Positions 3,366-23,394 of a DNA stretch of 32,000 bases are shown piece by piece. The translations under genes were made by a program, and so were the position numbers. The notes beneath the pieces were generated by a model. That model had not been told where the DNA came from, made no database searches, and worked only from the letters and a program-made list of their open reading frames with translations. This DNA comes from Photobacterium carnosum (GTDB lineage Bacteria; Pseudomonadota; Gammaproteobacteria; Enterobacterales; Vibrionaceae): assembly GCF_002849605.1 (NCBI RefSeq), contig NZ_NPIB01000002.1:54520-86519 (forward strand), given 5' to 3'. The first letter of the stretch is position 1; the number at the start of each line of letters is the position of its first letter.

Positions 3366-3375
3366 TTATATTTAT

Positions 3376-4123: not shown

Positions 4124-4144
4124 GGATGCTGGTGAACAGCATCC
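4124..4144. terminator. short hairpin downstream of the 526-aa gene
   Basis: Stem ggatgctg 4124-4131 pairs with cagcatcc 4137-4144, with a 5-nt loop. It lies 8 nt beyond the stop of the minus-strand ORF, and a weak U-tract follows on the minus strand. Confidence 0.4.
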
Positions 4145-4151
4145 AACTAAA

Positions 4152-6972: not shown

Positions 6973-7451
6973 ACTTTAATGAAATGTAATTTCGGCTGCG
7001 GTTATTGGATAGATTTTAAATTTAGTACACGCAAAATAACGCCGCTAAATCTTTTTTAAAAGTGATAACAATATATCGCTAGTATGCCAAGATAGCATAT
7101 AGTGTTCATGCTTTATCTGTAGCTACTGTTTAAAATGGAGATGTGGGTATCGTTGATTGGATTAATTCGTACAGGTACTTTTTGCTTAGTTTTGATACTT
7201 TTTAAAATAGCCGTAGTACCATTACCGAAGCAAGGTGAAATCGCTCGCAGTGGCACGTTCTATCTGTGATGTAATAATGAGTACAAGATCAATTATAAAT
7301 AGGGATTAATTTAAAAATTACTCATAACTACCAGTAAAAATATAATTCAGGCAATGAATATTAATTCACTGTTAGTTAACGTATCTTCGGGAATATACCA
7401 AATATAAGTGAATAAAGTGCGATTTTATATTCACTTTTAAGTTATGTCGGT

Positions 7452-8093
7452 GTGTTAACTATTGCAGATAATTGTGAGATTAAAATTTTGTACTACAATA
7501 ACCATCCCCCTACATACAAGCAAAAAATATACGCGATGCGTATTTATAATGATTTAAATTTGATGATTCCTGTCGATGATATTTTAACATCATTAGAGAC
7601 AGCTCAAGATTTTATCAAGAAGCACTCCCCTTTCCATACTGTTTATCGGCGCCTAACGAACATCGTCAAAGCAGAATTTAAAGACGAATTATGTGAGGTT
7701 GAACTTGTTGAGTATGGTGAATACATCGATTGCCACCGTAACTTATCAATTACGGAAGTTATGGAGCATCTTCGTATCAATAAGACAGAATATTTAGATA
7801 GTATTGCTGCACATAAGGCATATATATTTAAATTAGCTCAAAGTAACTCAATGAGTGATTTTGATAATTATCAACTGGAAGACCTTGAATCTTGGAAACA
7901 ATTTAAAACAATTCATTTTTTTTATGATCTGTTACGTTTGAATTTAAACTACACAATCAACGATGCGATAAAACAATACGTTTGGCAATATGCCATTTAT
8001 ATCAATGGCACAATTAACTTCAATAATCACCGCATCTTTATGAATAACTTGCTATTATCTGAAAATTTAACGGCTATTTATGGTGATAGTTGA
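7452..8093 (+). CDS. hypothetical protein (213 aa) downstream of the repeat island
   Basis: Intact ORF with a GTG start, followed by a good terminator at 8160-8188. No recognised motif. Its position makes it a candidate binder of the 13-mers, which is speculative. Confidence 0.55.
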   Translation: MLTIADNCEIKILYYNNHPPTYKQKIYAMRIYNDLNLMIPVDDILTSLETAQDFIKKHSPFHTVYRRLTNIVKAEFKDELCEVELVEYGEYIDCHRNLSITEVMEHLRINKTEYLDSIAAHKAYIFKLAQSNSMSDFDNYQLEDLESWKQFKTIHFFYDLLRLNLNYTINDAIKQYVWQYAIYINGTINFNNHRIFMNNLLLSENLTAIYGDS

Positions 8094-8159
8094 TCATCGT
8101 AACCAGATAAAATTTAAAAAGGTGGGCATCGGTCCAAGCCATTGCGCTTCGTGGTGCTA

Positions 8160-8188
8160 ACAAGGGGAGCTATGCTCTCCTTGTTTTT
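8160..8188 (+). terminator. rho-independent terminator
   Basis: 11-bp stem (acaaggggagc pairs with gctctccttgt, one G-U pair), 3-nt loop, then TTTTT. Confidence 0.7.
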
Positions 8189-8236
8189 ATGTGCTATTTT
8201 GTCCTCAAATGGTCTTGATACGAAGAGATAATTACG

Positions 8237-8629
8237 ATGCAGCCACAGTCACTCGTTACACTAACAAAGACAAGGTTAAACAAAGCCAGAACCGCAAGAG
8301 GTGCATTCACCAACGCTCAAATAGCTGTATTTTTTGACGATGAGGTAATTGGCAACCCTATGCCATCTGGTTGGTTATCAACCGTGGAAGGGCGGCAAGT
8401 GCCTTTAAGCGACTTTATTACCTTTGTGGAGCTTGGGTGCAACCTTGATTATATCGATAAAATCAATAATAGTGGCTACATAACGGGGTATACGCTCATA
8501 CCGAAAGTTGAAGGTTTTTCAAAACTGAAAACTCTATCTCAGAACATCAAGAGGCTTGAGGAGACGCGTGGCAATTCAGGTAACTTGAGAGATCTAGCAG
8601 AGGCTCACTGGGGATTAAAAATCTCATAG
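8237..8629 (+). CDS. hypothetical protein (130 aa) in a GC-richer patch
   Basis: Intact ATG ORF. Its base composition is visibly less AT-rich than its neighbours. No confident family. Confidence 0.5.
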   Translation: MQPQSLVTLTKTRLNKARTARGAFTNAQIAVFFDDEVIGNPMPSGWLSTVEGRQVPLSDFITFVELGCNLDYIDKINNSGYITGYTLIPKVEGFSKLKTLSQNIKRLEETRGNSGNLRDLAEAHWGLKIS

Positions 8630-8639
8630 TGAATTAAAT

Positions 8640-8830
8640 TGGGTATAAGATCTTTCTAATTTCAACGCTTCCTTTCGCCAACCCAAGTCGTTCAGCAGGA
8701 GTCTTACCATCTTTTGAACTCTTCCATGATTAGATGTGGTACTTATCGGTCTTTCTAGCATGGACAACCTACGTCTAACAATTTGGAAGAAGCTATCGAT
8801 CGGGTGCAAGGATGCATCACGAAGTGCGAT
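8640..8830 (-). pseudogene. remnant of the C-terminus of an rve/DDE-type transposase
   Basis: The minus-strand translation gives ..HPIDSFFQIVRRRL..SNHGRVQK. After a +1 frame change it gives DGKTPAERLG. This resembles the transposase C-terminal pattern (E-R/S-F-F-x-T-L-K ... Y-N-x-x-R-x-H ... G-K-T-P-A-E). Stop codons lie immediately upstream and no intact catalytic core is present. Confidence 0.4.
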
Positions 8831-9181
8831 TTCATGCTAAGCCTTGAACGGTCGGTTATAACATTCTTGTCTACCAGTGCTACTCACAACAGCCTTATCT
8901 AGCGCGTTTTTTGCGATTAATAATGTGGCTTCATCTCTCGATATCATGTTCTCATCACATACTTACTCAATAAGCTTTTCACTAAACTTAACCATTCTAT
9001 GTCTTTGGTCTACAGTAAGTTCTTTGTTTATTTTTACATATAGAGCATGACAATTAGCTTTCGAACGCAAGGCAACAGGCGCGGTTGATGGCTGGCTCCT
9101 GATCCAGATGAAATAATACTGGTCACAAATGTTAGAAAAATCTATCCTTTAATAAGTAGAAAAATAAGGTTTTTAAAGCAA

Positions 9182-9934
9182 ATGAACAATAATAATAAAG
9201 TTAAGCCTGATATTATCAAAGCAGTAATGGATTATCGTTATAGTCAGGGTGAGAAATTTGAACGTTACTTTCAAACGACTAAGAATCGCTTTCAAGTCTG
9301 TACAAGCCGGAGTCGTAAACGCGAAATAATCGAAATTAATAGTACCATTGAACGGCTAAAGCAGCGTATAGAGCGTTACAGCGATATTGTTTCAATACTT
9401 TATAATCATGAGCAACAAATTAAAGTTTCAAATGTTAATTATATGTCGATCGGAGTTGTAAATAATGAATTTACACTTTTCAATCAATCGTTATTTTTAA
9501 GGTTTAATTGTGCCCCTCCTGAAACTCAGCTAACTTTTCTTGTTACTCCACAAACTATTAGTACCCATGCGGTTGTGCGCTATCTTGAACGTAACAATAC
9601 ACTAGATGTTAAGGCTGCTATTGTTGAGCTAGGAATGGCTTTAGTCGATTGCGCCCAAGAACTTGCCTCTCACTGCGCTCAAACAGGTCTATGTCCTACT
9701 GGGCATACAGAGCGTAATATCAAGACTATTAACGATGGTATTGCAATTATTATTATCCCTGATCCGAGTGTACTGGATTACTCCGAAGCCGATTGGAAGG
9801 TCGTAACATACATTTCGCCTGATATGGTAAAAGATTTCAATCTTCGTAGCCATGAAGCTGGATTTGTTTTGGATGACTACGCTATTGAATATAAGGATGA
9901 TATTCGATCCTATATCGATAACATGCTTAGTTGA
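9182..9934 (+). CDS. hypothetical protein (250 aa), first gene of a four-gene cassette
   Basis: Intact ATG ORF. It contains the motif THAVVRYLERN (H-A-x-x-R-x-x-E-R), seen in some small toxin or nuclease-like domains. This is a weak assignment. Confidence 0.65.
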   Translation: MNNNNKVKPDIIKAVMDYRYSQGEKFERYFQTTKNRFQVCTSRSRKREIIEINSTIERLKQRIERYSDIVSILYNHEQQIKVSNVNYMSIGVVNNEFTLFNQSLFLRFNCAPPETQLTFLVTPQTISTHAVVRYLERNNTLDVKAAIVELGMALVDCAQELASHCAQTGLCPTGHTERNIKTINDGIAIIIIPDPSVLDYSEADWKVVTYISPDMVKDFNLRSHEAGFVLDDYAIEYKDDIRSYIDNMLS

Positions 9935-10060
9935 GCCTTATCGGGAATGGGCGTGAACCAATATTCTTTCTATTAAAGTCAATTTTAGTCGTTTTCATAA
10001 GACAATAGATTTAAATATCAGGGTATGATTTTCAATAATTTTAATAATTAAGTAAAAATC

Positions 10061-10942
10061 ATGTCTGAAGATAAAAAGTTCTATTCGGCTTCATCATTAG
10101 CAAAGAGACTAGGTGTGGAATATTCAGATTTAGTTCGTGCCTTACTTTTATCACAATATGTTATGAGAGGTGCAGATCGAAAGCTTGTGCTTACAGATGA
10201 AGGTATTGCTGCAGGGGCTAAAATGGGGTCTTCGGATAAATACGGTCCTTTTATCCAATGGCCAGAAGGCTTAAATGTAGATGTTGAACTTAAAACCCCT
10301 ACTCAAAACACTAAATCGGTACCGCAAACCTCCAACAATCGTAATGCAAATACAAAAAACATTTCAAGTAGAACTTTAGCAAAGCGGCTTAATCTTGATG
10401 CTAATTACCTTAATGATATTGCTTGCGTTCTTGGTTGGGCGAGCAAAGCGAGCAAGGTGAACGGTTACCTCTCGACTAATCTTGGTTTAAAAGAAGGCAT
10501 AAGCCATGGTTATTCGTCCAAATATAATATGGCTTATTTGCTGTTTCCCCATAACATCCTAACTTATGACAAATTTAATAACTGCGTCGAGATATTTAAG
10601 CATTTAGAATTAAATAATATTGGGTTATATACCGGAACTGTCGAGTGTGTTCAAACAATGGCGGTAGATGGTCACATTGTAAATTCTATTTACCATTGCA
10701 TCATTGATAACTGGCTGCTGTTCCACGGCATCACACATATTATTAATTCTCGCAATCCATTCCCCAATACTGACTTTTTCTTACCAGAGTTAGGACTCTC
10801 GATTAAGTTCAACATGGATGAATCTACTGAAAGTATACCCATTGTCGATGAAACAAACGGTAGAATGATCACCTTTAATCCTAATAATATAATCCATATT
10901 GAAGAAGTCATGAATAAAGCATCGTTTACTTTACGTATTTAA
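10061..10942 (+). CDS. protein with two tandem HTH-like modules (293 aa)
   Basis: Internal duplication: SASSLAKRLGVEYSDL...LTDEGIAAGAKMGSSDKYGPF matches SSRTLAKRLNLDANYL...STNLGLKEGISHGYSSKYNMA. The C-terminal segment IDNWLLFHGITH...TDFFLPELGLSIKF loosely resembles a degenerate PD-(D/E)xK nuclease-fold core. Confidence 0.7.
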   Translation: MSEDKKFYSASSLAKRLGVEYSDLVRALLLSQYVMRGADRKLVLTDEGIAAGAKMGSSDKYGPFIQWPEGLNVDVELKTPTQNTKSVPQTSNNRNANTKNISSRTLAKRLNLDANYLNDIACVLGWASKASKVNGYLSTNLGLKEGISHGYSSKYNMAYLLFPHNILTYDKFNNCVEIFKHLELNNIGLYTGTVECVQTMAVDGHIVNSIYHCIIDNWLLFHGITHIINSRNPFPNTDFFLPELGLSIKFNMDESTESIPIVDETNGRMITFNPNNIIHIEEVMNKASFTLRI

Positions 10943-11060
10943 CTGACGATTATTTAGTGATCAAGGCGTCATCAATTCGCGTGAACCCTTGATCCCTAAC
11001 AATAAAACCAACACTTACTACGCTTTCAACGTCTAGCGTTATTTATCTTTGTAAGTATAA

Positions 11061-12224
11061 TTGTCTCGTGACTTAATAACAGAGACCATAATAATGCTTA
11101 CTCAAACGATAGTTAAAATAACCTTACTAGAAAAAAAAATTTTTAAAGATGAGATCCACTTACATCAACCTGGGGGTGATGTATGGAATATGTGCCAACA
11201 ATCCCATATAAATCGAAAGATCATGGAATTACAGGATAGAAGTAAATACTCACAGGAATTTTTTGATGATTATAATGATAAAAATAGTTTAGACGCCTCC
11301 ATTATAAAACGAATGTACTCCAGATTTTGGGTGTTATCCTCGGAACAAAGAGACGATGATGGAATCGCTCCTATGTTAACGATCAAAGATTTTATCGAGG
11401 TTTCCGAAAATCATTACAGAGAACATAACGACATTAGCTGTCAACGTACCGCAAAAAAGACAGTTAAAAAAATGTTCCATGGCGTCAATAAATGCTTACC
11501 GCTACCCACGCTTCTAACACCTCTAACTGGTAAGTTAATAAGCGAGTCAGAATTCAAGCTGGTACGTAGTGAATGTGGTCAGAACGTACACCTTTTCGTT
11601 AATCTTTATGACCAAGATGATGTAATACCATTCACCCCCAAAAATATAATTCGATACTATCACTACCCTAAAAAAGATGCGGTTAATTTATATCGAAATT
11701 TATGCCTCCCAAATATCAAATTATATATGCCTGTCGATGATACTAATTATACTGGTATGCCCCCTCATGAGGTCACACCGATCACTTATCTTCAAAACAA
11801 AGAAAATGGACGTATAAAAAGTGTCTGTTGGGATGTACCCGACGAATTGAAGATGATTAATCATGATTTGTTAGATAAAAATGATTTGATTGAATTAATC
11901 CAAAATGTCATTAGCCGCCCATTACCAGTTAGTAAATTATCATTATGGCGTGCAATGTGCGGAGAGTGGTACAACCGTCAAAATAATAATTTCAAATGGC
12001 ATGAGTTAAACGCTGACACTCAAAAACGGCATATAGTTAATTTTATCCGACATAGTTACTGTGGTTACACTCAGATCTACACCCTTCAAGACCGTGAATT
12101 AGCCGCTGAGTTACATGACATCGCATTTGACGCGTTACTAAGAAGGATCGGCCGCACCTTCCCATACCTCTCTGGTGAGTGTGTACGTCAGTTGAACCAC
12201 CGCTTTGATGAGGTCTATTATTAA
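11061..12224 (+). CDS. unknown-family protein, paralogue 1 (387 aa)
   Basis: Homologous over about 300 aa to the next ORF (F-x-GVNK-x-L-x-LP; YY-x-YP-x-KDA; NFIRH...GY-x-Q-x-Y; RRI-x-RTFPYL). The start is uncertain, either TTG 11061 or ATG 11094. Confidence 0.75.
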   Translation: MSRDLITETIIMLTQTIVKITLLEKKIFKDEIHLHQPGGDVWNMCQQSHINRKIMELQDRSKYSQEFFDDYNDKNSLDASIIKRMYSRFWVLSSEQRDDDGIAPMLTIKDFIEVSENHYREHNDISCQRTAKKTVKKMFHGVNKCLPLPTLLTPLTGKLISESEFKLVRSECGQNVHLFVNLYDQDDVIPFTPKNIIRYYHYPKKDAVNLYRNLCLPNIKLYMPVDDTNYTGMPPHEVTPITYLQNKENGRIKSVCWDVPDELKMINHDLLDKNDLIELIQNVISRPLPVSKLSLWRAMCGEWYNRQNNNFKWHELNADTQKRHIVNFIRHSYCGYTQIYTLQDRELAAELHDIAFDALLRRIGRTFPYLSGECVRQLNHRFDEVYY

Positions 12225-13372
12225 TGGCTAAAATAAGACAAAGACAAAAGTATCAAGATAAAATATTGCAATCAGTACAAGATAAACTGTGTACTGATAG
12301 AGAGAGAGAATTGTTAGAAGATATGGGTTTACCTGTAACCGCTAAGAGTGTTTTGTTCATGATGGAAAAACACCAAGCGGAAAGCTCTCCAGAAATTATA
12401 GATTATTCACAACGTCATTCTGTTGCAACATCTATATCGGAATGTATGTATGGTCTATTTTTAACTCAGCCAGTCGCCAATATTGACAATCAACACCGAG
12501 TGCTAAATATATCACAGCATATAAACGAACTTAGATGTTGTAAAGAAACAAGCGATTGGATCGTTGATGATTTTACCTTGCGCATTTTTAGAGGGGTTAA
12601 TAAGCGGTTAGAGTTACCTTGCGTTATTAGTAAACTCATCCTCGAATTAGAACTGCCAGCATTTAAAGCTAAAAACGTGGTGAAAGAAAGTTCTGTATTT
12701 TTATTCCAAGCGTGTGAAGTCGTTCGATTTAACGTAAAAAATTTAATTAAATATTACAATTATCCCGAAAAGGACGCCAAAGCATTTTACGAAAATTTAG
12801 CGATATATAATCAGTCCACACCACTCTACTTACCTAAAAATACGAAACACAAAAATAGAGAATTACCAGTAACATACGATAATACGGGTGATGTTATAAA
12901 AGTGTTTTGGGATATACCAACAAAACTCGTTGATGAGTTCATGCTGGAATATATTAATCATGAGAGCAGTGATCACCAGCTTGTAGAGTCAGACTTATGT
13001 GAAATTCTTAATATGTTAGATAAACCGTTGCCCATTGAAGACCTAAGCTTTTGGAAAATATTGGCAAAACAATTTTATATGGATAACGGTGAAGATTGGT
13101 CAGCGATGTCCGTGTCTCGACAAAAAAGGCTACTCACAAACTTTATTAGGCACAATATCCCAGGTTATAGTCAGGCATATCAGTTAAATGACAGAGCATT
13201 AGCTAAACGTCTGCATGATGATTATTTTGATCTAGTAATGAGACGGATAGCTCGCACGTTCCCTTACTTGGCTAATGAATGCAATAACCAATGGAGTTAT
13301 CGAGAAGGTAAGAACAATAATTCTGATGGTCTAATTGATAACTCAGGTAAGAAGCAATCTTTGCTTGATTAG
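12224..13372 (+). CDS. unknown-family protein, paralogue 2 (382 aa)
   Basis: Its ATG overlaps the upstream TAA stop by 1 nt (TAATG), suggesting translational coupling. It shares the conserved blocks of paralogue 1. Confidence 0.8.
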   Translation: MAKIRQRQKYQDKILQSVQDKLCTDRERELLEDMGLPVTAKSVLFMMEKHQAESSPEIIDYSQRHSVATSISECMYGLFLTQPVANIDNQHRVLNISQHINELRCCKETSDWIVDDFTLRIFRGVNKRLELPCVISKLILELELPAFKAKNVVKESSVFLFQACEVVRFNVKNLIKYYNYPEKDAKAFYENLAIYNQSTPLYLPKNTKHKNRELPVTYDNTGDVIKVFWDIPTKLVDEFMLEYINHESSDHQLVESDLCEILNMLDKPLPIEDLSFWKILAKQFYMDNGEDWSAMSVSRQKRLLTNFIRHNIPGYSQAYQLNDRALAKRLHDDYFDLVMRRIARTFPYLANECNNQWSYREGKNNNSDGLIDNSGKKQSLLD

Positions 13373-13414
13373 ATGTCTATTTTTGGTGTATCTGAATAAC
13401 AATGTAGTCATTCG

Positions 13415-13451
13415 CTTACAATAAACATAATTAATATATGTTTATTGTAAG
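13415..13451. terminator. AT-rich perfect hairpin between convergent genes
   Basis: cttacaataaacat (13415-13428) pairs with atgtttattgtaag (13438-13451), with a 9-nt loop. It lies between the ends of the 382-aa gene and the EAL gene. Confidence 0.45.
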
Positions 13452-13511
13452 TTAATTGGCAGCTACCCCATCCACGAATGGCAATAGCATTAGACCATTA
13501 ATATATAATGG

Positions 13512-14819
13512 CTATCCTTTTATTCTTGGCTCCGGATAACCAAAGTAATACCCTTGCCCAATATCACAGCCAAGAGAATGCATGATCACTGCTTGTTCAT
13601 GAGTTTCTATCCCCTCAGCTACGATTTTATGGTCCGTACAAAGCAATAAATCCACAGTCGAGCGGGTTAACGTTGATAATGACGTTTGATTCATGGATTT
13701 ATGGGCGGCAAGTGCTTTTTTTATTATGACTCTAGGAATGCTTTTTCTAGATTCTAATTTTAAAATTGATCGTATATCTAAATCTTGATAATTAAGATTA
13801 GTGCAGAAAAATCGGTCTAATTTGATGGTGTTAATGGGTAGATACATCAAATAATTAATATTGGATGTCCCAGTACCAAAATCATCGATAGCAATACTAA
13901 AACCTTGTGATGATATATCCATCAACGCATGATGAATTTTAGAATTTTTCTCTATAACCTGAGTTTCAACAATCTCGAATTCAATGAGTTCAGGTCTTAT
14001 CTTGAAAATTGCGGCGCTCTCACGTATAAAATCAACTAAATTACAGTGACGTTGGTTTAACGATGATCCATCAATATTTACAGCAATCTGTGTCATTTCC
14101 CCCTTTGCTACCCATGTCTGCGAATGATTAAAAGCCGTAGTTATAACCCACTTATCTAAATCGCATTGAAGTGTGTAAAATTTAAACCAATATAAAAAAT
14201 CTACAGGAGAGAGAACCCCATAATCTGGATGCCGCCATCTGAGTAATGATTCAACCCCCATTTCTTTGTTCGTTTTTAGATCTACTTTCGTTTGAAACCA
14301 AAGCTCTAACTCATTATTTTTCATGGCATTAAGTAAGTCTAATTTTGAGAAGGTATATTTCTCACTATTAAATTCTTCATCCGTTGAGTTACATGGCTTC
14401 GGTGGCTCTACATCTTCAAGTAATTCCTGGGCGCTTATATCACTCTGTTCATTAAAAATAGCAACTTTATATGACACATTAAATAAATGAGATATTGTCG
14501 TAGTTGAATGACAATAACCATATTCTAATAACGTTTGAAATTTAGCTCTGATGTGTGGGTTCGTTTGACCAGAACAAATAAGTGCAATTTGACTATAACC
14601 ATACTCAAATGCCATGATGTTTTTATTTTTCATAGATTTATGAGCCAACTGTAAAACCCACAATGCCACATCATTCATAACTGATGTAAAAACAAGATCG
14701 CCTAATATATCTTTATGAAGATGAGCATCAATAACGTCTACAATGACCAAATAAAACTCTTTTCCTTTATCTATTCGCGCCGTTAACTCTTCGTAAAGCT
14801 TGAATTTTTGAAGAACCAC
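13512..14819 (-). CDS. degenerate-GGDEF / EAL domain protein (putative c-di-GMP phosphodiesterase)
   Basis: EAL-domain signature blocks are present: GVESLLRW, AVNIDG, EFEIVET, IAIDDFGTG, IKLDR, VAEGIET and GQGYYFGYP. The N-terminal half has a GGDEF-like layout, with YGYSQ where GGDEF would sit. The start is GTG with GGAG 10 nt upstream. Confidence 0.9.
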   Translation of the reverse strand: MVLQKFKLYEELTARIDKGKEFYLVIVDVIDAHLHKDILGDLVFTSVMNDVALWVLQLAHKSMKNKNIMAFEYGYSQIALICSGQTNPHIRAKFQTLLEYGYCHSTTTISHLFNVSYKVAIFNEQSDISAQELLEDVEPPKPCNSTDEEFNSEKYTFSKLDLLNAMKNNELELWFQTKVDLKTNKEMGVESLLRWRHPDYGVLSPVDFLYWFKFYTLQCDLDKWVITTAFNHSQTWVAKGEMTQIAVNIDGSSLNQRHCNLVDFIRESAAIFKIRPELIEFEIVETQVIEKNSKIHHALMDISSQGFSIAIDDFGTGTSNINYLMYLPINTIKLDRFFCTNLNYQDLDIRSILKLESRKSIPRVIIKKALAAHKSMNQTSLSTLTRSTVDLLLCTDHKIVAEGIETHEQAVIMHSLGCDIGQGYYFGYPEPRIKG

Positions 14820-14989
14820 TATAATAAAGCTCCTTAAAAGTGTTAATGGGGTTTTATGCAGTATATATACTTAATAAAGTATGTCTTAAAAGAGACTACA
14901 TTTTTTTAAAATTGTAAGAGGAAAACGCTTGAAGTCGGATTTTTGAGCCATATACTATCTTTATACTCACTTTCAAATGGTTAATTATC

Positions 14990-15358
14990 ATGCGTAATAA
15001 ATATAAAATTGTAAGTGGCTTACTATTAATGTGGGCAAGTTTTAATGCTACAACCGCTTTAGCAGAGAATGAAGTCCCAGAGTGGGCTATTAACCCACCA
15101 CAAGGGACTGCTTCATATTGTACTGATATACTCTATATGGGTAAGGAAAAAGGAATTCTGGTAGCAAAGACATTTGCAAGTAACATGCTAAATAATCATG
15201 AACTTGGCCATTACGTCGAGGGTGCTGAAGGAATTCACTCATCAAGCTACCATCAAGATATTTTGACGGCTAAAGTAGGATTGCAAAAAAGCACTAAAAT
15301 TATCAAGCAGTATATTAATGACAATAATCTTTGCGTTTTGGTTGCCCATGACGCGTAA
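14990..15358 (+). CDS. secreted small protein (122 aa)
   Basis: N-terminal signal peptide ending ..TTALA/EN. The mature N-terminus, PEWAINPP, is reminiscent of LPP20-type periplasmic proteins, a weak assignment. Confidence 0.7.
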   Translation: MRNKYKIVSGLLLMWASFNATTALAENEVPEWAINPPQGTASYCTDILYMGKEKGILVAKTFASNMLNNHELGHYVEGAEGIHSSSYHQDILTAKVGLQKSTKIIKQYINDNNLCVLVAHDA

Positions 15359-15364
15359 TGGACG

Positions 15365-15916
15365 CTATTTGACGGCAATCTTAACTAATGGGTGTAATGG
15401 GTTACTCGCCATATAACTACCCTGACCTTGAATCTCCATTATTATCAAATCCTCATGAACTTGGCTGCTCAATTTGAGGCGGTTACTTGTAAGTAAATTT
15501 TTTAACTTAGTTCTGAATTCTTGTTCTTCTCCACCATTAAAGTAATCTGACACTAAGTAAACGATCATCTTTATAACCGCATCATCCAAAACTAAATATT
15601 CTTGTCGTGTTCCAATAACAACAAAATTAACCCAACGCCTTGGATCTTCTTTGTGGTGGCTTACAAAGTTAACTACCCCATTCTTCAGAAAAAGAATTGT
15701 GGTAAATGGGCACATGATTGAGTTGATATAAAAGAGCAACGATTCTGTATTGTTACCAATAATAATTGGTACAAATGACGGATCAATAGCGTTAGCTAAA
15801 GGAACATATCCGAATAAGTAAAATAACTGTATTGGGTATAAGAAAGAGATGGCAATAGACCGAATAAGGTTCGGTCTACTTTGTGCCATAAACCGATTTT
15901 TATCAAAATAGATCAT
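15365..15916 (-). CDS. membrane protein (183 aa)
   Basis: Two hydrophobic helices (IAISFLYPIQLFYLFGYVPLA and LLFYINSIMCPFTTILFL) followed by a soluble tail. No family recognised. Confidence 0.55.
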   Translation of the reverse strand: MIYFDKNRFMAQSRPNLIRSIAISFLYPIQLFYLFGYVPLANAIDPSFVPIIIGNNTESLLFYINSIMCPFTTILFLKNGVVNFVSHHKEDPRRWVNFVVIGTRQEYLVLDDAVIKMIVYLVSDYFNGGEEQEFRTKLKNLLTSNRLKLSSQVHEDLIIMEIQGQGSYMASNPLHPLVKIAVK

Positions 15917-15927
15917 GACGGTTTACT

Positions 15928-16416
15928 CTAATTTTCTGGCATTTCAAGATTGAACATACTTGATATTTGATATGTTATTAGTCGTTTTTTTTCTTCAGGA
16001 ATGATGCAGTAATGTAATGACACTTTTGTTTCAGGTCCTACAAATAAAATATAGTATTGATTCTTGCGTAACCCTGAAGGCATTAGATGAATTCGCTTTA
16101 CTTCACCATTACATTTAAAAGGGGTTTGTGATATTGCAATACTAAAAATTGTTAACTGTCTTAATAACGTTTTCCCGTCTTCTGACATTGATAATCGCCA
16201 ACGCATTGATAATAAAGCAAGTATTGCGATAACGCCCCATGGTGCCCATGTCGGCATGGTGTAGCTATAGAGAATCGAATGATAAATGCAAGATGTTAAG
16301 ATTAGTAATATTCCTAAAAATACAGCAACACCACACTTTGGCCATACAGATAAACTAATACCAATAAATCTCTCTTTCGTTTTTGGATCGACCGAATTTA
16401 CAGGAATAATAATCAT
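15928..16416 (-). CDS. membrane protein (162 aa)
   Basis: Two TM helices (GVAVFLGILLILTSCIY and APWGVIAILALLSM) followed by a soluble ~90-aa domain. It ends 12 nt upstream of the start of the 183-aa gene (15916). Confidence 0.6.
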   Translation of the reverse strand: MIIIPVNSVDPKTKERFIGISLSVWPKCGVAVFLGILLILTSCIYHSILYSYTMPTWAPWGVIAILALLSMRWRLSMSEDGKTLLRQLTIFSIAISQTPFKCNGEVKRIHLMPSGLRKNQYYILFVGPETKVSLHYCIIPEEKKRLITYQISSMFNLEMPEN

Positions 16417-16632
16417 CGTTTCCCCCTATGCGATTTTTATGTCAGTGAGTTTAACAAACAACATTGTCTTCCACTTCTGCAATAACGGTACGTAGTGCTT
16501 ATCTTTGGTGAAAAAACAAAAAAACATGCGATATCTGATAACGAACATTAATCAGGTAGCATTTTCATAATTATTTCTATTTAATATTCGTCATAATGTC
16601 CCTATGTAAAATTCTTAACGAGACTAATTGAA

Positions 16633-16953
16633 ATGATGGATGATGAAAAATTAACAGTAAGTAAAACTATCCACTGGGCAATAAAATGCGGTTGGAAAGT
16701 CGTAGCTGCAGTTCGAGGAATGGCATTTACTCAAGATAAAGACATTAATTTTTATATCGACGTTATCGCTGAAAGTCCAGACCAAAAAGAAAAATATGAT
16801 ATTGGTTTTTGGCCCGGTATAAATAAGGATTACCGCATTACAGAGAATGATTTGGCAGAGATTAAATGGTTGCATCCAGCAATTAAAATTGAACGTAATG
16901 TTACTACTCCGAGTGACAGGTCAAATTTGATTAACGTAACTAATAGGCAATGA
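16633..16953 (+). CDS. hypothetical protein (106 aa)
   Basis: Intact ATG ORF with normal amino-acid composition. Its 3' end overlaps the convergent 141-aa gene by 33 nt. Confidence 0.5.
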   Translation: MMDDEKLTVSKTIHWAIKCGWKVVAAVRGMAFTQDKDINFYIDVIAESPDQKEKYDIGFWPGINKDYRITENDLAEIKWLHPAIKIERNVTTPSDRSNLINVTNRQ

Positions 16954-17346
16954 AACAACTTGTTGTTCTGGATAGCTGCCACAATAGAAGTAGTAGCTAT
17001 TTGTATCTTTTGCCGTTGGTATAAGTACGTTCCCAGAGTGAATGTCACAACAAACTCTTTCACCATTATCTAACGTCGTTATCGTCTGATATTTTGGTGA
17101 TATAGGTGTGACATGAATACAGCTATATTGACCGGTTCTATCTTTTCTTGGTTTTAAATAAGTTGTGGCATCTACCATTTTCCATGTGTTGTACTGTAAT
17201 GGCATTAAAAACATGGGAGTGAAAGACGTGTCCTTTGTCATAACTGCCACTTTGAAGTTATCAATGAAATTACGAGTTCCATTTGTTAGCCCTAGAGCTA
17301 ATAATGCCCCAAAAAACACACACTGAAACACTTTGAATAGCCCCAT
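16921..17346 (-). CDS. secreted protein (141 aa), last gene of the small-protein operon
   Basis: N-terminal signal-like helix (FQCVFFGALLALGLTNG). The mature part contains several Cys. Confidence 0.6.
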   Translation of the reverse strand: MGLFKVFQCVFFGALLALGLTNGTRNFIDNFKVAVMTKDTSFTPMFLMPLQYNTWKMVDATTYLKPRKDRTGQYSCIHVTPISPKYQTITTLDNGERVCCDIHSGNVLIPTAKDTNSYYFYCGSYPEQQVVSLPISYVNQI

Positions 17347-17358
17347 TTGTAAAAACCT

Positions 17359-17565
17359 CTAGAATAAATCATCAAGATCTTCAGGCTTTAATTTTTTCTT
17401 AGGGCTGATAACTTTTTTATGGATGACTGTTGTTAACTTACTAGAATTAGTATGCCCATTACTACGTTCCACTACATGATGTTTATTTGTTAATGGAGAT
17501 GCTATCAGTGTGGTTGAGGTCAAACTTACTGATAATATAATAGTTACAATTAGTATGTTCTTCAT
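17359..17565 (-). CDS. small secreted protein (68 aa)
   Basis: Clear signal peptide (MKNILIVTIILSVSLTSTTLIA/SP). The mature part is basic. It lies 12 nt upstream of the next gene. Confidence 0.55.
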   Translation of the reverse strand: MKNILIVTIILSVSLTSTTLIASPLTNKHHVVERSNGHTNSSKLTTVIHKKVISPKKKLKPEDLDDLF

Positions 17566-17567
17566 GG

Positions 17568-17753
17568 TTATCTCAAATTATATGAATTTTTTAGTCGATA
17601 AAACTCTTCCAATACACTCAATCCAGAGAGCTGAGAGCTTTTCCGTAAGTTTTTTATAAAAGTTATTGGATCGGTTTTAATTTGTAATGATAATGTAACA
17701 ATTAAATCTAATTCATATTGCGAGATCCCCTCTTCAATGATAAGTTGCTGCAT
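17568..17753 (-). CDS. small helical protein (61 aa)
   Basis: Intact ORF that ends 2 nt before the start of the 68-aa gene. It has no signal peptide. Confidence 0.45.
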   Translation of the reverse strand: MQQLIIEEGISQYELDLIVTLSLQIKTDPITFIKNLRKSSQLSGLSVLEEFYRLKNSYNLR

Positions 17754-17776
17754 TACTTGTGTTACCTATTGTTTAG

Positions 17777-18259
17777 TTACATATAAAAATTGAAACCGAA
17801 CCTTACTATGTGAGTCGCAATACAAACGGAACTAACCAATATCACCAAGCTAACAAGACCAATAACATATGGGTCTAAAGTAAAAAAAGAGGATTTTTCC
17901 GCTTTTGATACCCGCAGGCCGGGCACTAAGTTAATTGTCCATACTGCTACTTCGTCAACCTCAAACACATTTGATTGATGCTGTGCCAGCAATGGTTGAA
18001 TTTCATCTATAAATGAAAATTTAAAATCATTACTATTGACGCTTACTACTATTACATTGATAAAATTATCAATTCGACACAGGACGCAATTAAAAGTTCT
18101 AATTTCACCGTTTGGCATCTTTATATCTAAATTTGCATGACCAGTATTTTTTAACTCCATAACTTCGACGTCACTCATGAAGCAAATCATACTCCCAACA
18201 AAGTGCGTTCCATCATAGATAGGAAATGAGGCCGTTATATTACTTTTTATGTTAATCAC
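17777..18259 (-). CDS. C-terminally membrane-anchored protein (160 aa)
   Basis: Soluble N-terminal domain plus one C-terminal TM helix (VIGLVSLVILVSSVCIATHIV). Its start overlaps the upstream gene by 8 nt. Confidence 0.6.
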   Translation of the reverse strand: MINIKSNITASFPIYDGTHFVGSMICFMSDVEVMELKNTGHANLDIKMPNGEIRTFNCVLCRIDNFINVIVVSVNSNDFKFSFIDEIQPLLAQHQSNVFEVDEVAVWTINLVPGLRVSKAEKSSFFTLDPYVIGLVSLVILVSSVCIATHIVRFGFNFYM

Positions 18260-18503
18260 GATAGCGCCGAAAAAAAATAAACATTAAGTAAATCATAACC
18301 AGTATTCCTAAGGTAGAAGTCCCTACGGTTAATGCACCCAAGATCATATCTATAGCTTGATCAACCCTAACATCAAGGATTGAAGATGTAGGCATTATTG
18401 CTACGAGTAATAATTCAGCGCACCCATTTAGACATGCAATGCTTGTTATAACTATCGCAATTAAAATCCGTCCTCCCCATGCGCTGTCACCTTTTACTGT
18501 CAC
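18252..18503 (-). CDS. small polytopic membrane protein (83 aa)
   Basis: Two to three hydrophobic helices and a basic C-terminus (FFRRYRD). It lies 1 nt from the upstream ORF. Confidence 0.6.
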   Translation of the reverse strand: MTVKGDSAWGGRILIAIVITSIACLNGCAELLLVAIMPTSSILDVRVDQAIDMILGALTVGTSTLGILVMIYLMFIFFRRYRD

Positions 18504-18504
18504 T

Positions 18505-18732
18505 CTATATGCCTACAGTTGGTCTCATTAAGCTATAAATATAAGATAATATTGGCATGTCTTTAAATGGACTATCAATATAATGATATGATTTACAACA
18601 ACTTTCTTTAAGTATTAATACAAAAACATCATGATTACATGATGAGTAAGAGATAAATAACGCAGCAAAAAAAAATGCAATAGAAATACAACAAGAAATT
18701 TTCAGGGGTGCACTTATCGTATTGATATACAT
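18505..18732 (-). CDS. small Cys-rich membrane or signal-anchored protein (75 aa)
   Basis: Hydrophobic N-terminal segment (ISCCISIAFFFAALFISY) and six Cys. It is first in the operon. Support is moderate only. Confidence 0.4.
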   Translation of the reverse strand: MYINTISAPLKISCCISIAFFFAALFISYSSCNHDVFVLILKESCCKSYHYIDSPFKDMPILSYIYSLMRPTVGI

Positions 18733-18830
18733 TTTCTATCTACCCCAACCCTTTCCAACAGTACATTTTGAATTTGCAAGATGTATGATAAGTTGCGACA
18801 GGGTTTTAATCAATAAATAGAGGGTACAAA

Positions 18831-19178
18831 ATGACACCATGGTTGCGTTTATTAACAGCTATTACACAAAAAGTGAATATTCATGGAATTACAGTGGATG
18901 AGTTTCGTTTGGCAGCTACAATTTGGGAAATGAAACGTTCAGTACATCACACTGAAGCAATGTCCATTTTGTTTCAAAATAACCTTGAATCATCACCAGA
19001 AGATGATAATCGGGATGCCTTTATTGATAGCGTGAGTAACCTTATCGATAAAGGTTTTTTGGCTTGGGAAGGAGATGACCTACAACTGGCATTCACAGGT
19101 GAGATGTTTATTATCGAAATCTATCAAATAGCCCAATCGGAGCTAACAAAGCGACTTTTCGACCCTGAATTACAATAA
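18831..19178 (+). CDS. hypothetical protein (115 aa)
   Basis: Intact ATG ORF with AGAGGG about 8 nt upstream. It is divergent from the small-protein operon. Confidence 0.55.
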   Translation: MTPWLRLLTAITQKVNIHGITVDEFRLAATIWEMKRSVHHTEAMSILFQNNLESSPEDDNRDAFIDSVSNLIDKGFLAWEGDDLQLAFTGEMFIIEIYQIAQSELTKRLFDPELQ

Positions 19179-19202
19179 ACTAAAAAATCGTAGCCCAAAT
19201 AC

Positions 19203-19245: not shown

Positions 19246-19845
19246 TCAATAAACAAGTAATGCTCTACGGTTTCTAGTTCTGGCTTCGTTAGTATGCGCA
19301 GAATCGGCTGGATGCGTTTCACCATAGCTCTCACAGGTTAATTGCACCTTTCTAACGCCTAGCTTTACTAACTTTTTACACACGTTATCAGCTCGACGCT
19401 GCCCCAAATCATAATTGTAATCAACGCTCCCTTTTTCGTCAGTAAAACCCACTACCAATAGACGACTTGCTAAATTTTGCTTTAAATAAGTCGCATTTTT
19501 TTTAAGCATGTCATTAAATGACGTTCTTACCTTATCTCGACTAAACTGGAAATATACAGTCTTATTGATTGGCTGGTGGGCAAGAATAGGTTCGATATCA
19601 TCGTCAACAGCATCCACAATAGCCATAGCTACCTGAGTTTCCCTTGTTATAGAGTGGGATTTCTCATTTACATCCTCTTTCCATGAGTTACGTAGTTGTT
19701 CTGCCTTATTTGAAGTAAGAACGTTTACAGATTCATGTTTGATGCTTACATAAGGAGTGACCATCAAATTTGATTGTTGAGAACTACACCCAGTAATAAC
19801 TGATACTAGAACTGCTCCAAGTAATAGTTTATTTTTCATGTACAA
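19246..19845 (-). CDS. OmpA/Pal-family peptidoglycan-associated lipoprotein
   Basis: Lipobox VITGC/SSQ after a signal peptide. The C-terminal OmpA_C signature is present: GFTDEKGSVDYNYDLGQRRADNV...NRRALLVY. Confidence 0.9.
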   Translation of the reverse strand: MYMKNKLLLGAVLVSVITGCSSQQSNLMVTPYVSIKHESVNVLTSNKAEQLRNSWKEDVNEKSHSITRETQVAMAIVDAVDDDIEPILAHQPINKTVYFQFSRDKVRTSFNDMLKKNATYLKQNLASRLLVVGFTDEKGSVDYNYDLGQRRADNVCKKLVKLGVRKVQLTCESYGETHPADSAHTNEARTRNRRALLVY

Positions 19846-20180
19846 TTAACCTTAAATCAATTAGTTATAATTAAGAATTATTTAAAATGCATCTTAATAG
19901 GGATTATATGGCACGATATTTTTTGAAAAACATACAGCATTGTATGTTTGCATGTTTTTTTTATAGTCCATATAATGCGCGAAAATTCAAATACTCTCAC
20001 TGTTTAATTAAAATTGTTAATGACAATAATTGTAACATTTTTTAGATAGACGAATTAATGCGCGAAATTTTAATATTGCAAGAAATGAGAAATGTGTTTC
20101 CTATAATGCGGTATAGATCCATTGGTGTAGAGATTTATTGCGTATATAATCCATCTAATAAGAAATGGAATGCATACATT

Positions 20181-21101
20181 ATGTCTAAGCAATCTAAAAT
20201 TGAGCAAAACTTAAAACATCTAAAATACCAACTAGACAGAGAGATAAATAATTTAACCTCCCTACTAAGAACATTGGATGTTATAGACAGTAAGGTTTAT
20301 CTACTTCCAGAAATAAAAGATGCCGATACTCATAAAGATATTAAAAAGATTAGCGTGTCATTAGTGTCTGATTATAAAGCTTTTAATTTGGCTCTACAGT
20401 CTTTTTCAACTTTTGAAAAAGGTCTCGGGGATTCAGGTAAAAGAGCTTTTAGGTTACCGGGGTATTTGGTTGTAAATGGAAGTGCTATTCAAAAAGAAAA
20501 CCTATACGAAAACATAACTAGGATAAACAAGTTAAAAGATGATTTTAAAAAACAGGTTCAGGGCTATAGTAAAAATTCTAATAAGAAATACAATCTAGTT
20601 CATAGTCTGTTTAATAATCTGATGACTGTGCAAGTATACAGGCATATTCCATTGGTTACGGAAAATGTCGAATATATAAATTTTAGTTGGACAAATAAGC
20701 ACATTACATATAAAACATCTATACAAGAAATTTTAAACTTGTTAGATAGACACAGAAAAAAAACACCAAAGAGAAGTAATTCTGAAGATTGGAATCGAAT
20801 TATTGACAACGAAATTTCTATTATTAATGAATTACCAAAGGATACGACGTTAAGATTTAAACGAGTAAGTAAGCCTATTACTAGAGTTGATGTAGTCCCA
20901 TATAAGAAAAACAAACAAATTATATCAAATATACCATTAATTCTTTTTCAAACAGAAAAGCCCGTTGTTAGTAATCTTCAAGACTATCTAAGTGCACAAA
21001 GGCGAAGTTTCCGCGAAGATACTACAATCTATGGGATACCTGTCATTAAAAGATTGCATTTATATAAGAAACATATCAAACGAGTAACTAACTTAAAGTA
21101 A
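20181..21101 (+). CDS. tus: Tus-like DNA replication terminus site-binding protein
   Basis: Blocks are collinear with E. coli Tus as I recall it: VYLLPEIKDADTH vs VFSLPEVKKEDEH; AFRLPGYLV vs AVRLPGVLC; NITRINKLKDDF vs HIQHINKLKTTF; INFSWTNKHI vs LRFGWANKHI; RFKRVSKPITRV vs KIKRPVKVQPIARV; VIKRLHLYKK vs IIPRLHLYVAD. Starting at ATG 20181 gives 306 aa and aligns the N-termini. The tracked start at 20058 adds 41 unmatched residues. Confidence 0.8.
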   Translation: MSKQSKIEQNLKHLKYQLDREINNLTSLLRTLDVIDSKVYLLPEIKDADTHKDIKKISVSLVSDYKAFNLALQSFSTFEKGLGDSGKRAFRLPGYLVVNGSAIQKENLYENITRINKLKDDFKKQVQGYSKNSNKKYNLVHSLFNNLMTVQVYRHIPLVTENVEYINFSWTNKHITYKTSIQEILNLLDRHRKKTPKRSNSEDWNRIIDNEISIINELPKDTTLRFKRVSKPITRVDVVPYKKNKQIISNIPLILFQTEKPVVSNLQDYLSAQRRSFREDTTIYGIPVIKRLHLYKKHIKRVTNLK

Positions 21102-21130
21102 ATACTCTAATCTAACTTGGAAAATAAAAA

Positions 21131-21757
21131 ATGACAATTTCATCAATCAAAAGCGATATCAAAGAAGCAGTAGAAATTAAAACTACTAACAATATGGTCC
21201 CAAAAGCTGAAGCTATGCAATATGCATCAGATAATAATATTAAAAGTATGAGAGCTTGGTTCGCCTTTCATAACCTCCGTAACGGTGGTAGCTTTCGTCC
21301 ACAAAATATCCCTGGAGATCCATCTAAATTCTACGGTAAGACTGGTGAATGGCAAGGTTGGCCAGAGTTTTTAGGTACTGAACAAAAACCAACAAAAACT
21401 CTCACGGCTGAATTTGTTGACTTAGAATCATGTAAAGAGTGGTTTTTAGCTAACAAGATTTCTAGTGTCTTAATGTTTAGGACGTTCTGTAAAGTTAAAC
21501 AACGTCCATCATCTATTCCTGCAGCTCCAGACAAGGTTTATGGTGTTAAATTTTCAGAATTATTAGCCCCAAAGAAAGAACGATACCTATCTTTTGAAAA
21601 ATCCAAAGAAAAAATAGCACCAATGGGTTTTAAAAATTACTTAGAGTTTCGTCAAGGACGTCGAGATAATATGGATATATTGCATGATGTACCATGTAAT
21701 CCAGATAATATCTATTCAGACTCATGGGTTAATTGGGCTGATTTCTTGGGTAAGTAA
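21131..21757 (+). CDS. 'integrase-repeat' protein with three tandem repeat units
   Basis: Three helix + P-x-x-P-x-x-x-Y...W-x-[GN]-W-x-[DE]-F-L-G units: IPGDPSKFYGKTGEWQGWPEFLG, IPAAPDKVYGVKFSELL (degenerate) and VPCNPDNIYSDSWVNWADFLGK. It starts 29 nt after tus. Confidence 0.75.
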   Translation: MTISSIKSDIKEAVEIKTTNNMVPKAEAMQYASDNNIKSMRAWFAFHNLRNGGSFRPQNIPGDPSKFYGKTGEWQGWPEFLGTEQKPTKTLTAEFVDLESCKEWFLANKISSVLMFRTFCKVKQRPSSIPAAPDKVYGVKFSELLAPKKERYLSFEKSKEKIAPMGFKNYLEFRQGRRDNMDILHDVPCNPDNIYSDSWVNWADFLGK

Positions 21758-22107
21758 TCAATTATATATAAGAAAAGTAAGTGTATATATTAAAAAAAAT
21801 TTAATGAATAAATAAAAGATGTTGCATAATTAATAGTTATGCTTAATGTTGATTATAGGTAATGTCAGGCTAAATCAATTCCCTTTTTGAGGGGTATGAG
21901 ATGCATTATTCAATAGGGAGTATTAAACATTACTTCTCTGTTGAATAATGTCTACTTTTTAATTCGATATATTTAATTCATGTATATGTACTATAAATGA
22001 ATTAAATATATCAATATTCCCTTTTTCATATTAAAAGTTATTCATTCATAATAATGCATATGAATATATAGCTCTATCTTAGATTTATCCCATTGCAAAA
22101 TGACTAT

Positions 22108-23394
22108 TTAAAAAGTGATAACCCTTTGTTTTGCTTTTATTGGTATATTTTTCTTGGGGTTAAACCCCTTTGGCTTTTCCGCTCTAATGCTGTAAGAACC
22201 ATTAGGGTAGTAGAGGTTATAATAAAGAATATCCCAGTTATGATTCTCAGGGCTATGAACACTCTGTGGATGCATTTTTTCATTATACCCTTTTATATCA
22301 CCCGCTAGCGCATACGTTACAAATGGTTTCTTTTGAGCTCCATAATACAACTCTTGCACCAATACTATGCCTCTGAGTGGTGTAATACGCGGATCGTCTT
22401 CGTTTGTGAACTTAAGATTAATACCACCGATAAGCGTCCCCGCCTCGTAACCATTAGCATAATACTCCGTTGGACTTAACTCACTAGGTAAGTTGGTAAG
22501 AACACAATTATCAGCAGGCTTGTAAATGAGGCTATCTAATGCAGATGCGTATACTCCCATGGATTTATCCATCAGATTATAACTCGTATCATTTAAACCA
22601 TTACCCTTTGAGGTTATTTTTAAAACAATTGCCGTATCTGTCATACGATTAATACCAATTGATCGGATTTTATATCCAGATTTGGCAGCTTCCATTGCTA
22701 GCATGTTCAATTTTTTGAATTCTTTCTTCTGCTCATTAGTTAAAGGTTCTTGCATCCCTGAATACAGCAGTTTAGCTCTTGTGTAATCGTCATACTCTTC
22801 TCGGATCTGCCATAGAGGTTTATGGCTCACTAATTGTTTCGTTTCATTATAATTATCGTTAATCATGAATGTTTGAGTTTGGTCATCACCACCAGCATCA
22901 ATAAGTGCTGCTAACTTCATATAAGCAGTTGCTTTCTTTGTTTCAGAAAGATCACCTTTCATATTCTTAATTTCATGATCCGCCAACCGCTGAACTTGCT
23001 CTTTTAAAGCTGCATTTAGCGTTACTTGTTCTACGTATTTTTTAATTTCAGATAAATCATAAACTGCAGTTACATCGACTAAAGCACAACCATACGTACT
23101 TTCTGGGCAACTTTTAATGCGTTTATTTGTGACCTCTTTATGAATAACAAATGGTGTGGCAGATATGAGTAACTGTTTTTCATTCTCAGTGATATTGGAT
23201 GTAAAGATCCCTGCATTCTCTTTGATGCTGTCTCCCAATGTGTTTATCGCAACTTTTGTAGCTAACTCATAGCCATTTACTGGGGAATCATTTTCAGTTA
23301 GTGGATAACTTCCCGTTAAGGATGCAGACAAAGCAAATGCATTTGTACTACCAAGCATAAGGGCAACTAAAACCGTCTTTTTGAAATTTATCAT
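22108..23394 (-). CDS. secreted protein (428 aa) downstream of traG
   Basis: Signal peptide MINFKKTVLVALMLGSTNAFA/LSA. A terminator at 23505-23526 separates it from traG. No family recognised. Confidence 0.75.
   Translation of the reverse strand: MINFKKTVLVALMLGSTNAFALSASLTGSYPLTENDSPVNGYELATKVAINTLGDSIKENAGIFTSNITENEKQLLISATPFVIHKEVTNKRIKSCPESTYGCALVDVTAVYDLSEIKKYVEQVTLNAALKEQVQRLADHEIKNMKGDLSETKKATAYMKLAALIDAGGDDQTQTFMINDNYNETKQLVSHKPLWQIREEYDDYTRAKLLYSGMQEPLTNEQKKEFKKLNMLAMEAAKSGYKIRSIGINRMTDTAIVLKITSKGNGLNDTSYNLMDKSMGVYASALDSLIYKPADNCVLTNLPSELSPTEYYANGYEAGTLIGGINLKFTNEDDPRITPLRGIVLVQELYYGAQKKPFVTYALAGDIKGYNEKMHPQSVHSPENHNWDILYYNLYYPNGSYSIRAEKPKGFNPKKNIPIKAKQRVITF

Follow-up and report, generated by a model that had tools for sequence, protein, structure and literature searches.

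A tus gene in the backbone of a conjugative Photobacterium megaplasmid and its possible role at the plasmid terminus

Examining a 32,000-nucleotide stretch of Photobacterium carnosum DNA (contig NZ_NPIB01000002.1, positions 54,520 to 86,519; hereafter the window), we found that an open reading frame (ORF) at 20181-21101 on the plus strand almost certainly encodes a DNA-binding protein of the Tus family, and that this tus gene very probably belongs to the backbone of a family of large MOBH plasmids of the Vibrionaceae. The overall explanation that we favor, with some reserve, is a plasmid-backbone tus with a diverged site in cis, whose product would form a polar barrier bounding a termination zone opposite an RctB-type origin. 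The identification is correct but brings little that is new; the gene and its plasmid situation are already annotated and published.

The 306-amino-acid product matches the Pfam Ter profile with 193.2 bits (E=7e-57), its residues 13-295 aligning with positions 4-296 of 296, well above the curated threshold of 22 bits, and it also matches the PDB chains of Escherichia coli Tus (E=1.6e-20), at an identity of only 26-29%. The AlphaFold2 model, for which 54 family sequences were aligned, reached a mean predicted local distance difference test score of 93.1 and a predicted template modeling (TM) score of 0.85, and displays the Tus fold, with two alpha/beta domains and inter-domain beta-strands as the DNA cleft. 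Compared with PDB by Foldseek, the model retrieved Tus entries only, with 1ecr_A at E=9.7e-28 and a TM score of 0.82 over 307 columns, the next non-Tus match falling at E~0.5. The full length of the fold and the basic cleft are kept in the model, and the predicted isoelectric point of the protein is 9.91. A first-pass annotation made from the sequence alone had called the gene a Tus homologue, and both the profile search against the Tus/Ter family, which gave a significant Ter match, and the structural comparison with Tus-Ter, which returned no unrelated fold, agree with it. The ORF is an authentic, intact gene in a region of 29% G+C.

20181-21101, plus strand: tus, Tus-family protein of 306 amino acids (Pfam PF05472; PDB Tus; AlphaFold2/Foldseek match to 1ecr_A; RefSeq WP_256385111.1 annotated identically)

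The Tus family is small, with 274 representatives at E<=0.001 among 1.84 billion cluster representatives, and the Photobacterium toruni/Photobacterium damselae branch to which this protein belongs is isolated within it, the nearest other full-length representative being 32% identical. No further members of the branch were found in the one-genome-per-species set or the metagenome contig collection.

The ORF extends from 20058 to 21101, with in-frame ATG codons at 20181, giving 306 amino acids, and at 20058, giving 347, and public records conflict on which to use: RefSeq has the 306-residue form, and some GenBank and gene-caller entries hold the 347-residue form under the label "hypothetical protein". 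In relatives with a 71-75% identical Tus, the ATG at 20181 and the codons after it are kept; in those with a 75% identical Tus (loci L011 and L012), the codon at 20058 is ATA. Moreover, the Pfam Ter match of the longer form begins at residue 54, and its 41-codon extension has no counterpart in the family. On this comparative evidence ATG 20181 is the true start, in line with the earlier suggestion that the upstream start had been mis-tracked. The upstream features are as follows.

20058-20180, plus strand: in-frame upstream extension, noncoding and part of the tus 5' leader (ATA in L011 and L012; Pfam match from residue 54)
19947-19976, plus strand: sigma-70-like promoter TTTGCA-18-TATAAT, likely the tus promoter (10/12 match; conserved block)
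20027-20040, plus strand: candidate Tus-binding site or operator TAATTGTAACATTT, between promoter and ATG, sharing TTGTAAC with the Ter core (low confidence)

The promoter-like sequence is the top match of its kind within 19700-22200 and the most conserved upstream block across all relatives, including the P. damselae locus with a 50% identical Tus, and it is recognizable in Vibrio cholerae pW7G. It is likely to drive tus from about 200 bp upstream of the start, and probably also the downstream gene orf208. The leader as a whole is long and conserved, with several promoter-like repeats; an asymmetric motif common to the P. toruni and P. damselae leaders was not found, only promoter-like elements being held in common.

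The plasmid setting is evident from the identity of 99.2% (range 99.2-99.5%) between window positions 3084-32000 and plasmid unnamed1 of P. toruni WD2103 (NZ_CP101696.1), a circle of 264,682 bp that serves here as the reference plasmid. Genes around tus on this plasmid encode TraG/TraH/TraF, MobI(A/C), a MobH relaxase, TraD, and F-like pilus components, and from this gene set we identify a MOBH conjugative megaplasmid; the proposal that tus is carried by a mobile element therefore holds. The same Tus protein cluster is present in Photobacterium iliopiscarium. The gene order, running from an EAL-domain gene to an OmpA-family gene on the minus strand, then tus and orf208 on the plus strand, then TraG/H/F on the minus strand, recurs in P. 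damselae p1 (Tus 50% identical), in V. cholerae pW7G and other Vibrio plasmids of ~300 kb (36%), and in metagenomic contigs (75%). This conserved order across plasmids argues that tus is a backbone gene of a large Vibrionaceae MOBH plasmid family and not a recent passenger, a conclusion that we hold with little doubt.

The window and the reference plasmid differ in one segment. Window 1-3095 corresponds to reference 85,997-89,086 and window 3084-32000 to reference 105,508-134,428, with a 12-bp overlap at the junction (3084-3095), so that a 16.4-kb segment (89,087-105,507) is found in NZ_CP101696.1 only. It holds a site-specific integrase, DUF4238, and IS256, among others, and looks like an integrative element inserted in the terminus or variable zone of one plasmid variant.

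Plasmid-borne tus is far from exceptional. A tblastn search of PLSDB with the window protein found homologues in at least 1,428 records, with at least 80% of the query covered in 172; the records listed include a few mis-filed chromosomes, and among the genera are Klebsiella, Citrobacter, Escherichia, Vibrio, Pseudoalteromonas, Photobacterium, Shewanella, and Aeromonas. Plasmid-borne tus has been reported, including in Vibrionales, and chromosomal tus has been proposed to be domesticated from plasmids (Galli 2019, PMC6549158). Tus is annotated on the P. damselae plasmid pAQU1, with homologues on IncA/C and IncT plasmids (Nonaka 2012, PMC4036041), a 2025 paper draws tus on the map of a pAQU-type Vibrio plasmid, and the near-identical RefSeq record NZ_CP101696.1 already names the gene. 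By its plasmid location in a lineage without resident tus, the window gene fits the mobile plasmid-borne tus of Galli et al. 2019. The first-pass annotation had regarded a mobile element with its own Tus as unusual, a view that the published and annotated cases do not support, and it had stated that plasmids have Ter sites and depend on the Tus of the host, which is true of R6K and R1 but is no general rule. It had further suggested that such an element could arrest forks in a polar manner independently of the host. Such arrest is plausible, but the independence is no special feature: because Vibrionales have no resident tus (PMC6549158), acting without the host is the only option for this protein.

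The evidence for a role at the terminus comes from replicon geometry. NZ_CP101696.1 encodes an RctB-domain initiator at 256,168-258,069 (Pfam RctB_central, E=4.9e-22), adjoining parA/parB-like genes, and the point opposite this region on the circle (half circle, 132.3 kb) is within ~1 kb of tus, which is at 122,609. Its distance from the initiator genes of the plasmid is 87-133 kb, and it is not origin-proximal. The detrended cumulative GC skew of the plasmid has a range of 2405 vs 1118 +/- 239 in block shuffles, a value reached in 0/500 of them; from a minimum at 250,851 the curve rises to ~80 kb, stays on a plateau at 80-120 kb that is rich in integrases and insertion sequence (IS) elements, and declines steadily from tus onward. 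In P. damselae p1 the same backbone runs the other way round. The skew there has a range of 2517 vs 997 +/- 229, a minimum at the border of a ~40-kb resistance island that has inserted next to the RctB replicon, and a plateau at 70-110 kb; here again tus (58.6-59.6 kb) lies where the plateau ends, its upstream side turned toward it. The conserved feature is suggestive: tus at one boundary of a skew-defined termination or variable zone, oriented like E. coli TerB-tus. We also considered whether tus lies exactly opposite the RctB origin throughout the family and rejected this as a rule; it holds in P. toruni and fails in two P. damselae plasmids.

A repeat array lies in the replicon region of the same plasmid, with 15 copies of cctgatacGATGTAATGCA(A/C)CAACGAatcgtatc at 250,991-252,829 (locus L007, 991-2829) spaced by ~75, 113, or 150 bp. 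It has a ParB-family gene on one side and the parA/RctB-type replicon on the other, falls at the GC-skew minimum, and is centromere-like or iteron-like.

In the mechanism that we propose, the plasmid would replicate bidirectionally from an RctB-initiated origin in a host order without resident Tus. A Tus monomer would clamp an asymmetric plasmid-borne site that differs from E. coli Ter and, bound there, would act as a polar barrier to the replicative helicase, fixing one boundary of the plasmid termination zone roughly opposite the RctB-type (Vibrio chromosome-2-like) origin. A Tus site in the leader of the gene would also autoregulate tus, as TerB does for E. coli tus, where a Ter site in the promoter has this effect (PMC10331603). 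That Tus is a polar fork barrier at the plasmid terminus strikes us as an evenly balanced proposition. The fuller version is tentative and we would sooner doubt it than assume it: the plasmid would carry a complete, self-contained Tus/Ter trap whose Ter bears no relation to the E. coli consensus and which works at the terminus of an RctB-initiated megaplasmid, possibly with a modified lock pocket. If true, this trap would represent, in a living form, the plasmid-borne stage that is proposed to have preceded the domestication of fork traps by chromosomes.

Residues of the DNA-binding cleft are well kept. Aligned to E. coli Tus translated from the control locus, and in E. coli numbering, the window protein retains P42, H50, K89, R93-L-P-G96, H144, Y156-R157, F170, W172, N174, K175, R232, K235, Q252, and R302, and F140 is replaced by another aromatic residue, Tyr; A173 is Thr. 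The conservation is measured; K89, R93-LPG, H144, Y156-R157, W172, K175, R232, K235, and Q252 we take to be DNA contacts in the Tus-Ter structures. Work by Mulcair and colleagues in 2006 is said to have placed I79, F140, H144, and G149 in the pocket that captures the flipped C6 of Ter, with E49 and R198 reportedly assisting the lock.

No canonical Ter is present in the window, as the first-pass annotation had reported: GTTGTAAC has 0 copies (1.2 expected). The 7-mer TTGTAAC occurs at chance level, with 6 copies vs 7.0 +/- 2.6 expected; the four places given earlier (1846, 20030, and 26877 on the plus strand, 22316 on the minus strand) all hold it, and two more on the minus strand, at 164 and 17543, had been missed. 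On NZ_CP101696.1, G at position 6 is found in 0/11 copies of GTTGTAAC, and the related loci scanned for E. coli Ter likewise gave chance-level matches only. Because canonical Ter is absent from window and plasmid, any cognate site must be diverged, as had been thought probable; the E. coli Ter consensus search also fails on the Pseudoalteromonas chromid (PMC7858055).

The best candidate for a site is TAATTGTAACATTT, which lies on the tus coding strand, is placed like TerB in the E. coli control locus, and is invariant in relatives with a 71-100% identical Tus. Counting against it, the intergenic leader around it is conserved as a whole (69%), so that its own conservation does not stand out from that of its surroundings, and it has no G.C pair at the lock position; moreover, the leaders of P. 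damselae and V. cholerae tus lack it. That this motif is a binding site of Tus therefore seems improbable on present sequence comparisons.

Other candidates were rejected. The TAATTGTAAC pair at 17543(-)/20027(+), considered as a narrow trap, is not enriched in the window (one-mismatch count, 10 vs 6 +/- 2.4), its distal copy is not conserved in the 75% relatives, and the clustering (5 in 3 kb) is marginal without the two seed copies. The ATTGTAACTAA sites flanking the RepB gene (216.7 and 221.8 kb) and a 13/13 match to TerB positions 10-22 at 76.6 kb have only the 7-mer in common, and the GTTGTAAC copy at the syntenic place in P. damselae, 102.2 kb, points functionally the other way. Upstream of P. 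damselae tus there is an inverted "Ter-like" pair, GTTGTAAGGCTnTTACGA; it is part of a numerous family of palindromic GTAA-N5-TTAC sites and was rejected because palindromes of this kind suggest an operator bound by a dimer, whereas Ter is asymmetric. The reference plasmid has 45 of these palindromes (L002-L007; typical copy, ttGTAAGTGCATTACaa) vs 7.5 +/- 2.8 in Markov shuffles, spacings of N4, N6, N7, and N8 not being enriched; copies lie in the window at 1213, 3434, 15011, and 20869, and in P. damselae p1 at 7397 (+) and 10048 (-) of locus L008. GTAA-N5-TTAC is probably the operator of a dimeric plasmid regulator.

Several results speak against the terminus-barrier explanation or against parts of it. 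At the level of the protein, the NCBIfam Tus equivalog cut-offs are not reached (TIGR02648, 122.8 vs 178.3 bits; NF002810, 114.6 vs 323 bits), and by sequence we class the protein as a Tus family member and not an orthologue of the chromosomal enterobacterial protein. Residues attributed to the C6 lock differ as well: E49->T, I79->K, and P148-G149->N-N. At the level of the site, an E. coli-type GNATGTTGTAACTA with fewer than two mismatches is found nowhere on the 264,682-bp reference plasmid, and window matches to E. coli Ter at <=3 mismatches number 17 vs 17.5 +/- 4.4 in shuffled sequence, which is chance. The extended TAATTGTAACATTT motif has no other good copy on the plasmid, and the 10-mer twin of the motif near tus, at 17543-17552, is not conserved in the 75% relatives. 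At the level of the replicon, two Rep3-type initiators at 210.4 and 218.3 kb bring the total to three, so that the RctB-type origin may not be the one that fires; the terminus is located only coarsely by the skew, whose plateaus extend over ~40 kb and contain much mobile DNA; and the arc from RctB to tus is 34% and 28% of the circle in two P. damselae plasmids, a nonantipodal placement explained in part by the ~40-kb resistance island beside the RctB origin.

Among the rivals, the one that survives best, though we consider it unlikely, is a local polar barrier near the tra genes and oriT, which would keep replication co-directional with the highly expressed transfer genes or out of them, or would stop forks from the Rep3 origins. 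It would explain why tus always adjoins the TraG/H/F block, ~11 kb from mobI/oriT, and it suits a plasmid with three initiators whose antipodal tus placement is not conserved in P. damselae; an ori-proximal tus model, with Ter near the origin enforcing unidirectional replication, has been published for R1 and the Pseudoalteromonas chromid. However, tus is 87-133 kb from every initiator gene and hence not ori-proximal, and the change of skew regime at tus in two plasmids fits a terminus boundary better.

The lock residues raise a further rival, which we judge quite unlikely: a Tus-fold protein without the cytosine lock that would act mainly as a transcriptional repressor or non-polar roadblock, for example as an autoregulator of tus-orf208. 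The changes at E49, I79, and P148-G149 favor it, as do the loss of two residues at V236-Q237 in the DNA-contacting hairpin, a candidate site without a G.C pair at the lock position, and a long conserved leader with several promoter-like repeats. The E49, I79, and G149 changes are limited to four members of the P. toruni/P. damselae branch in the 54-sequence alignment (P148 is R in one other sequence), and the hairpin deletion to the same four in a 23-sequence alignment. In the 54-sequence alignment this looked strikingly like a lock pocket remodelled in one clade, but we do not read it as a sign of altered function: across 143 family representatives the same positions vary widely, with E at position 49 in 85, G or N at position 149 in 48 and 15, respectively, and H at position 144 in 96. 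Because of this wide variation the lock changes cannot be read as loss or remodelling, and a change at 49 or 149 is no proof of lost function. His144 and an aromatic residue at 140 are kept, together with the full-length fold, the basic cleft, and the conserved position of tus at the skew plateau edge, all of which stand against this rival.

Action in trans, on the host chromosomes or a competing plasmid, is very unlikely; it would account for the lack of a convincing site on the plasmid itself, but it is without positive evidence, the V. cholerae chromosomes have no fork trap (PMC6549158), and the conserved backbone position beside the terminus plateau favors action in cis. A chance ORF or a decaying, functionless pseudogene, for which only the low G+C of the region speaks, is effectively refuted by the intact full-length profile and fold match and by the 50-75% identity and synteny kept across species.

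Two neighbors accompany tus in the related plasmids.

21131-21757, plus strand: orf208, co-oriented, 29 bp downstream of tus (conserved; no family assigned)
19246-19845, minus strand: OmpA-family lipoprotein gene, divergent, left neighbor of tus (Pfam OmpA, E=8.6e-18)

The OmpA-family gene holds the same position in all related loci, and orf208 follows tus directly on its 3' side in P. damselae p1, V. cholerae pW7G, and the metagenomic relatives. tus and orf208 probably form one operon, and orf208 is a possible functional partner of Tus; its product had no match in Pfam or NCBIfam, and by eye it holds a repeated motif, IP-x-DP-x-K-x-Y ... W-x-G/N-W-x-(E/D)-FLG, near residues 60-82 and at the C-terminus. 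In the convergent gap between tus-orf208 and the TraG-side genes lies an AT-rich hairpin (21962-22015) with ~23 paired bases and a 5-nt loop, whose folding energy is -13.5 kcal/mol vs -3.0 +/- 1.4 in shuffles (z = -7.5); around it, conservation in the 75% relatives is only ~68%, and the hairpin could be a bidirectional terminator or another structured element. On the other side, almost all ORFs of window 1-19200 are without a Pfam match; the ten larger ones that were tested gave only a sub-threshold YkyB-like match (in 4152-5732), and the RefSeq names in this part are likewise "hypothetical" save for an EAL-domain protein at 13512-14819.

The reference plasmid carries further cargo by annotation, at 183-195 kb, 177.9-181.6 kb, and 208.2-209.3 kb (L005, L006). 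It includes a Tn7-like element with type I-F Cas genes (TnsA, Mu-type transposase, TniB, TniQ, Csy2, Csy3, and Cas6f), a gene set with the layout of a CRISPR-associated transposon. A 1,235-amino-acid protein with a reverse-transcriptase domain, a dnaN of the plasmid's own, and three RecT genes are annotated as well.

Compared with E. coli Tus-Ter (PDB 1ECR, 2I06), the window protein has the same family, fold, length class, and basic, monomer-type character, and it shares DNA-cleft residues including K89, R93, H144, K175, R232, and Q252. The placement is also alike: as with TerB-tus, the gene borders the termination zone on one side and turns its upstream region toward it. In the control locus, TerB itself is on the coding strand and precedes the tus ATG by 11 bp. 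In contrast to the E. coli system, the window tus is plasmid-borne, in a host order without resident tus and with no GNATGTTGTAACTA-type site in cis, and its product replaces E49, I79, and P148-G149 and deletes two hairpin residues.

Among plasmid systems, the tus genes of pAQU1-type, IncA/C, and IncT (Rts1) plasmids and of Vibrio MOBH megaplasmids resemble the window gene in MOBH relaxase, MobI(A/C), F-like tra genes, host family, and annotation, but the branch of the window Tus is isolated (next, 32%) and its plasmid has an RctB-type and two Rep3 initiators. We know of no plasmid Tus of the pAQU1, IncA/C, IncT, or Vibrio megaplasmid kind with a defined Ter or tested function. The Tus of the Pseudoalteromonas chromid (chromosome 2) is likewise on a plasmid-derived replicon of a marine gammaproteobacterium on which the E. 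coli Ter consensus search fails (PMC7858055); unlike the window gene, which is 87-133 kb from the initiators and near the RctB antipode, that tus adjoins ori2 and is linked to unidirectional replication. R6K and R1 also offer polar fork arrest on a plasmid, as proposed for the window case, but these plasmids have sites only and borrow the host protein, whereas the window plasmid has the protein and no recognizable site.

To our knowledge, no plasmid-encoded Tus outside Enterobacterales has a defined Ter or demonstrated fork arrest, and the hypothesis that fork traps were domesticated from plasmids onto chromosomes lacks a characterized plasmid system. As a discovery the gene described here matters little; its remaining value is as an experimental handle on the cognate Ter and on real fork trapping. 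A plasmid Tus could reveal how much divergence Ter recognition and the lock mechanism allow, and a megaplasmid with tus at the edge of a skew-defined terminus, an RctB-type origin opposite, and no resident Tus is a clean test ground for the domestication hypothesis.

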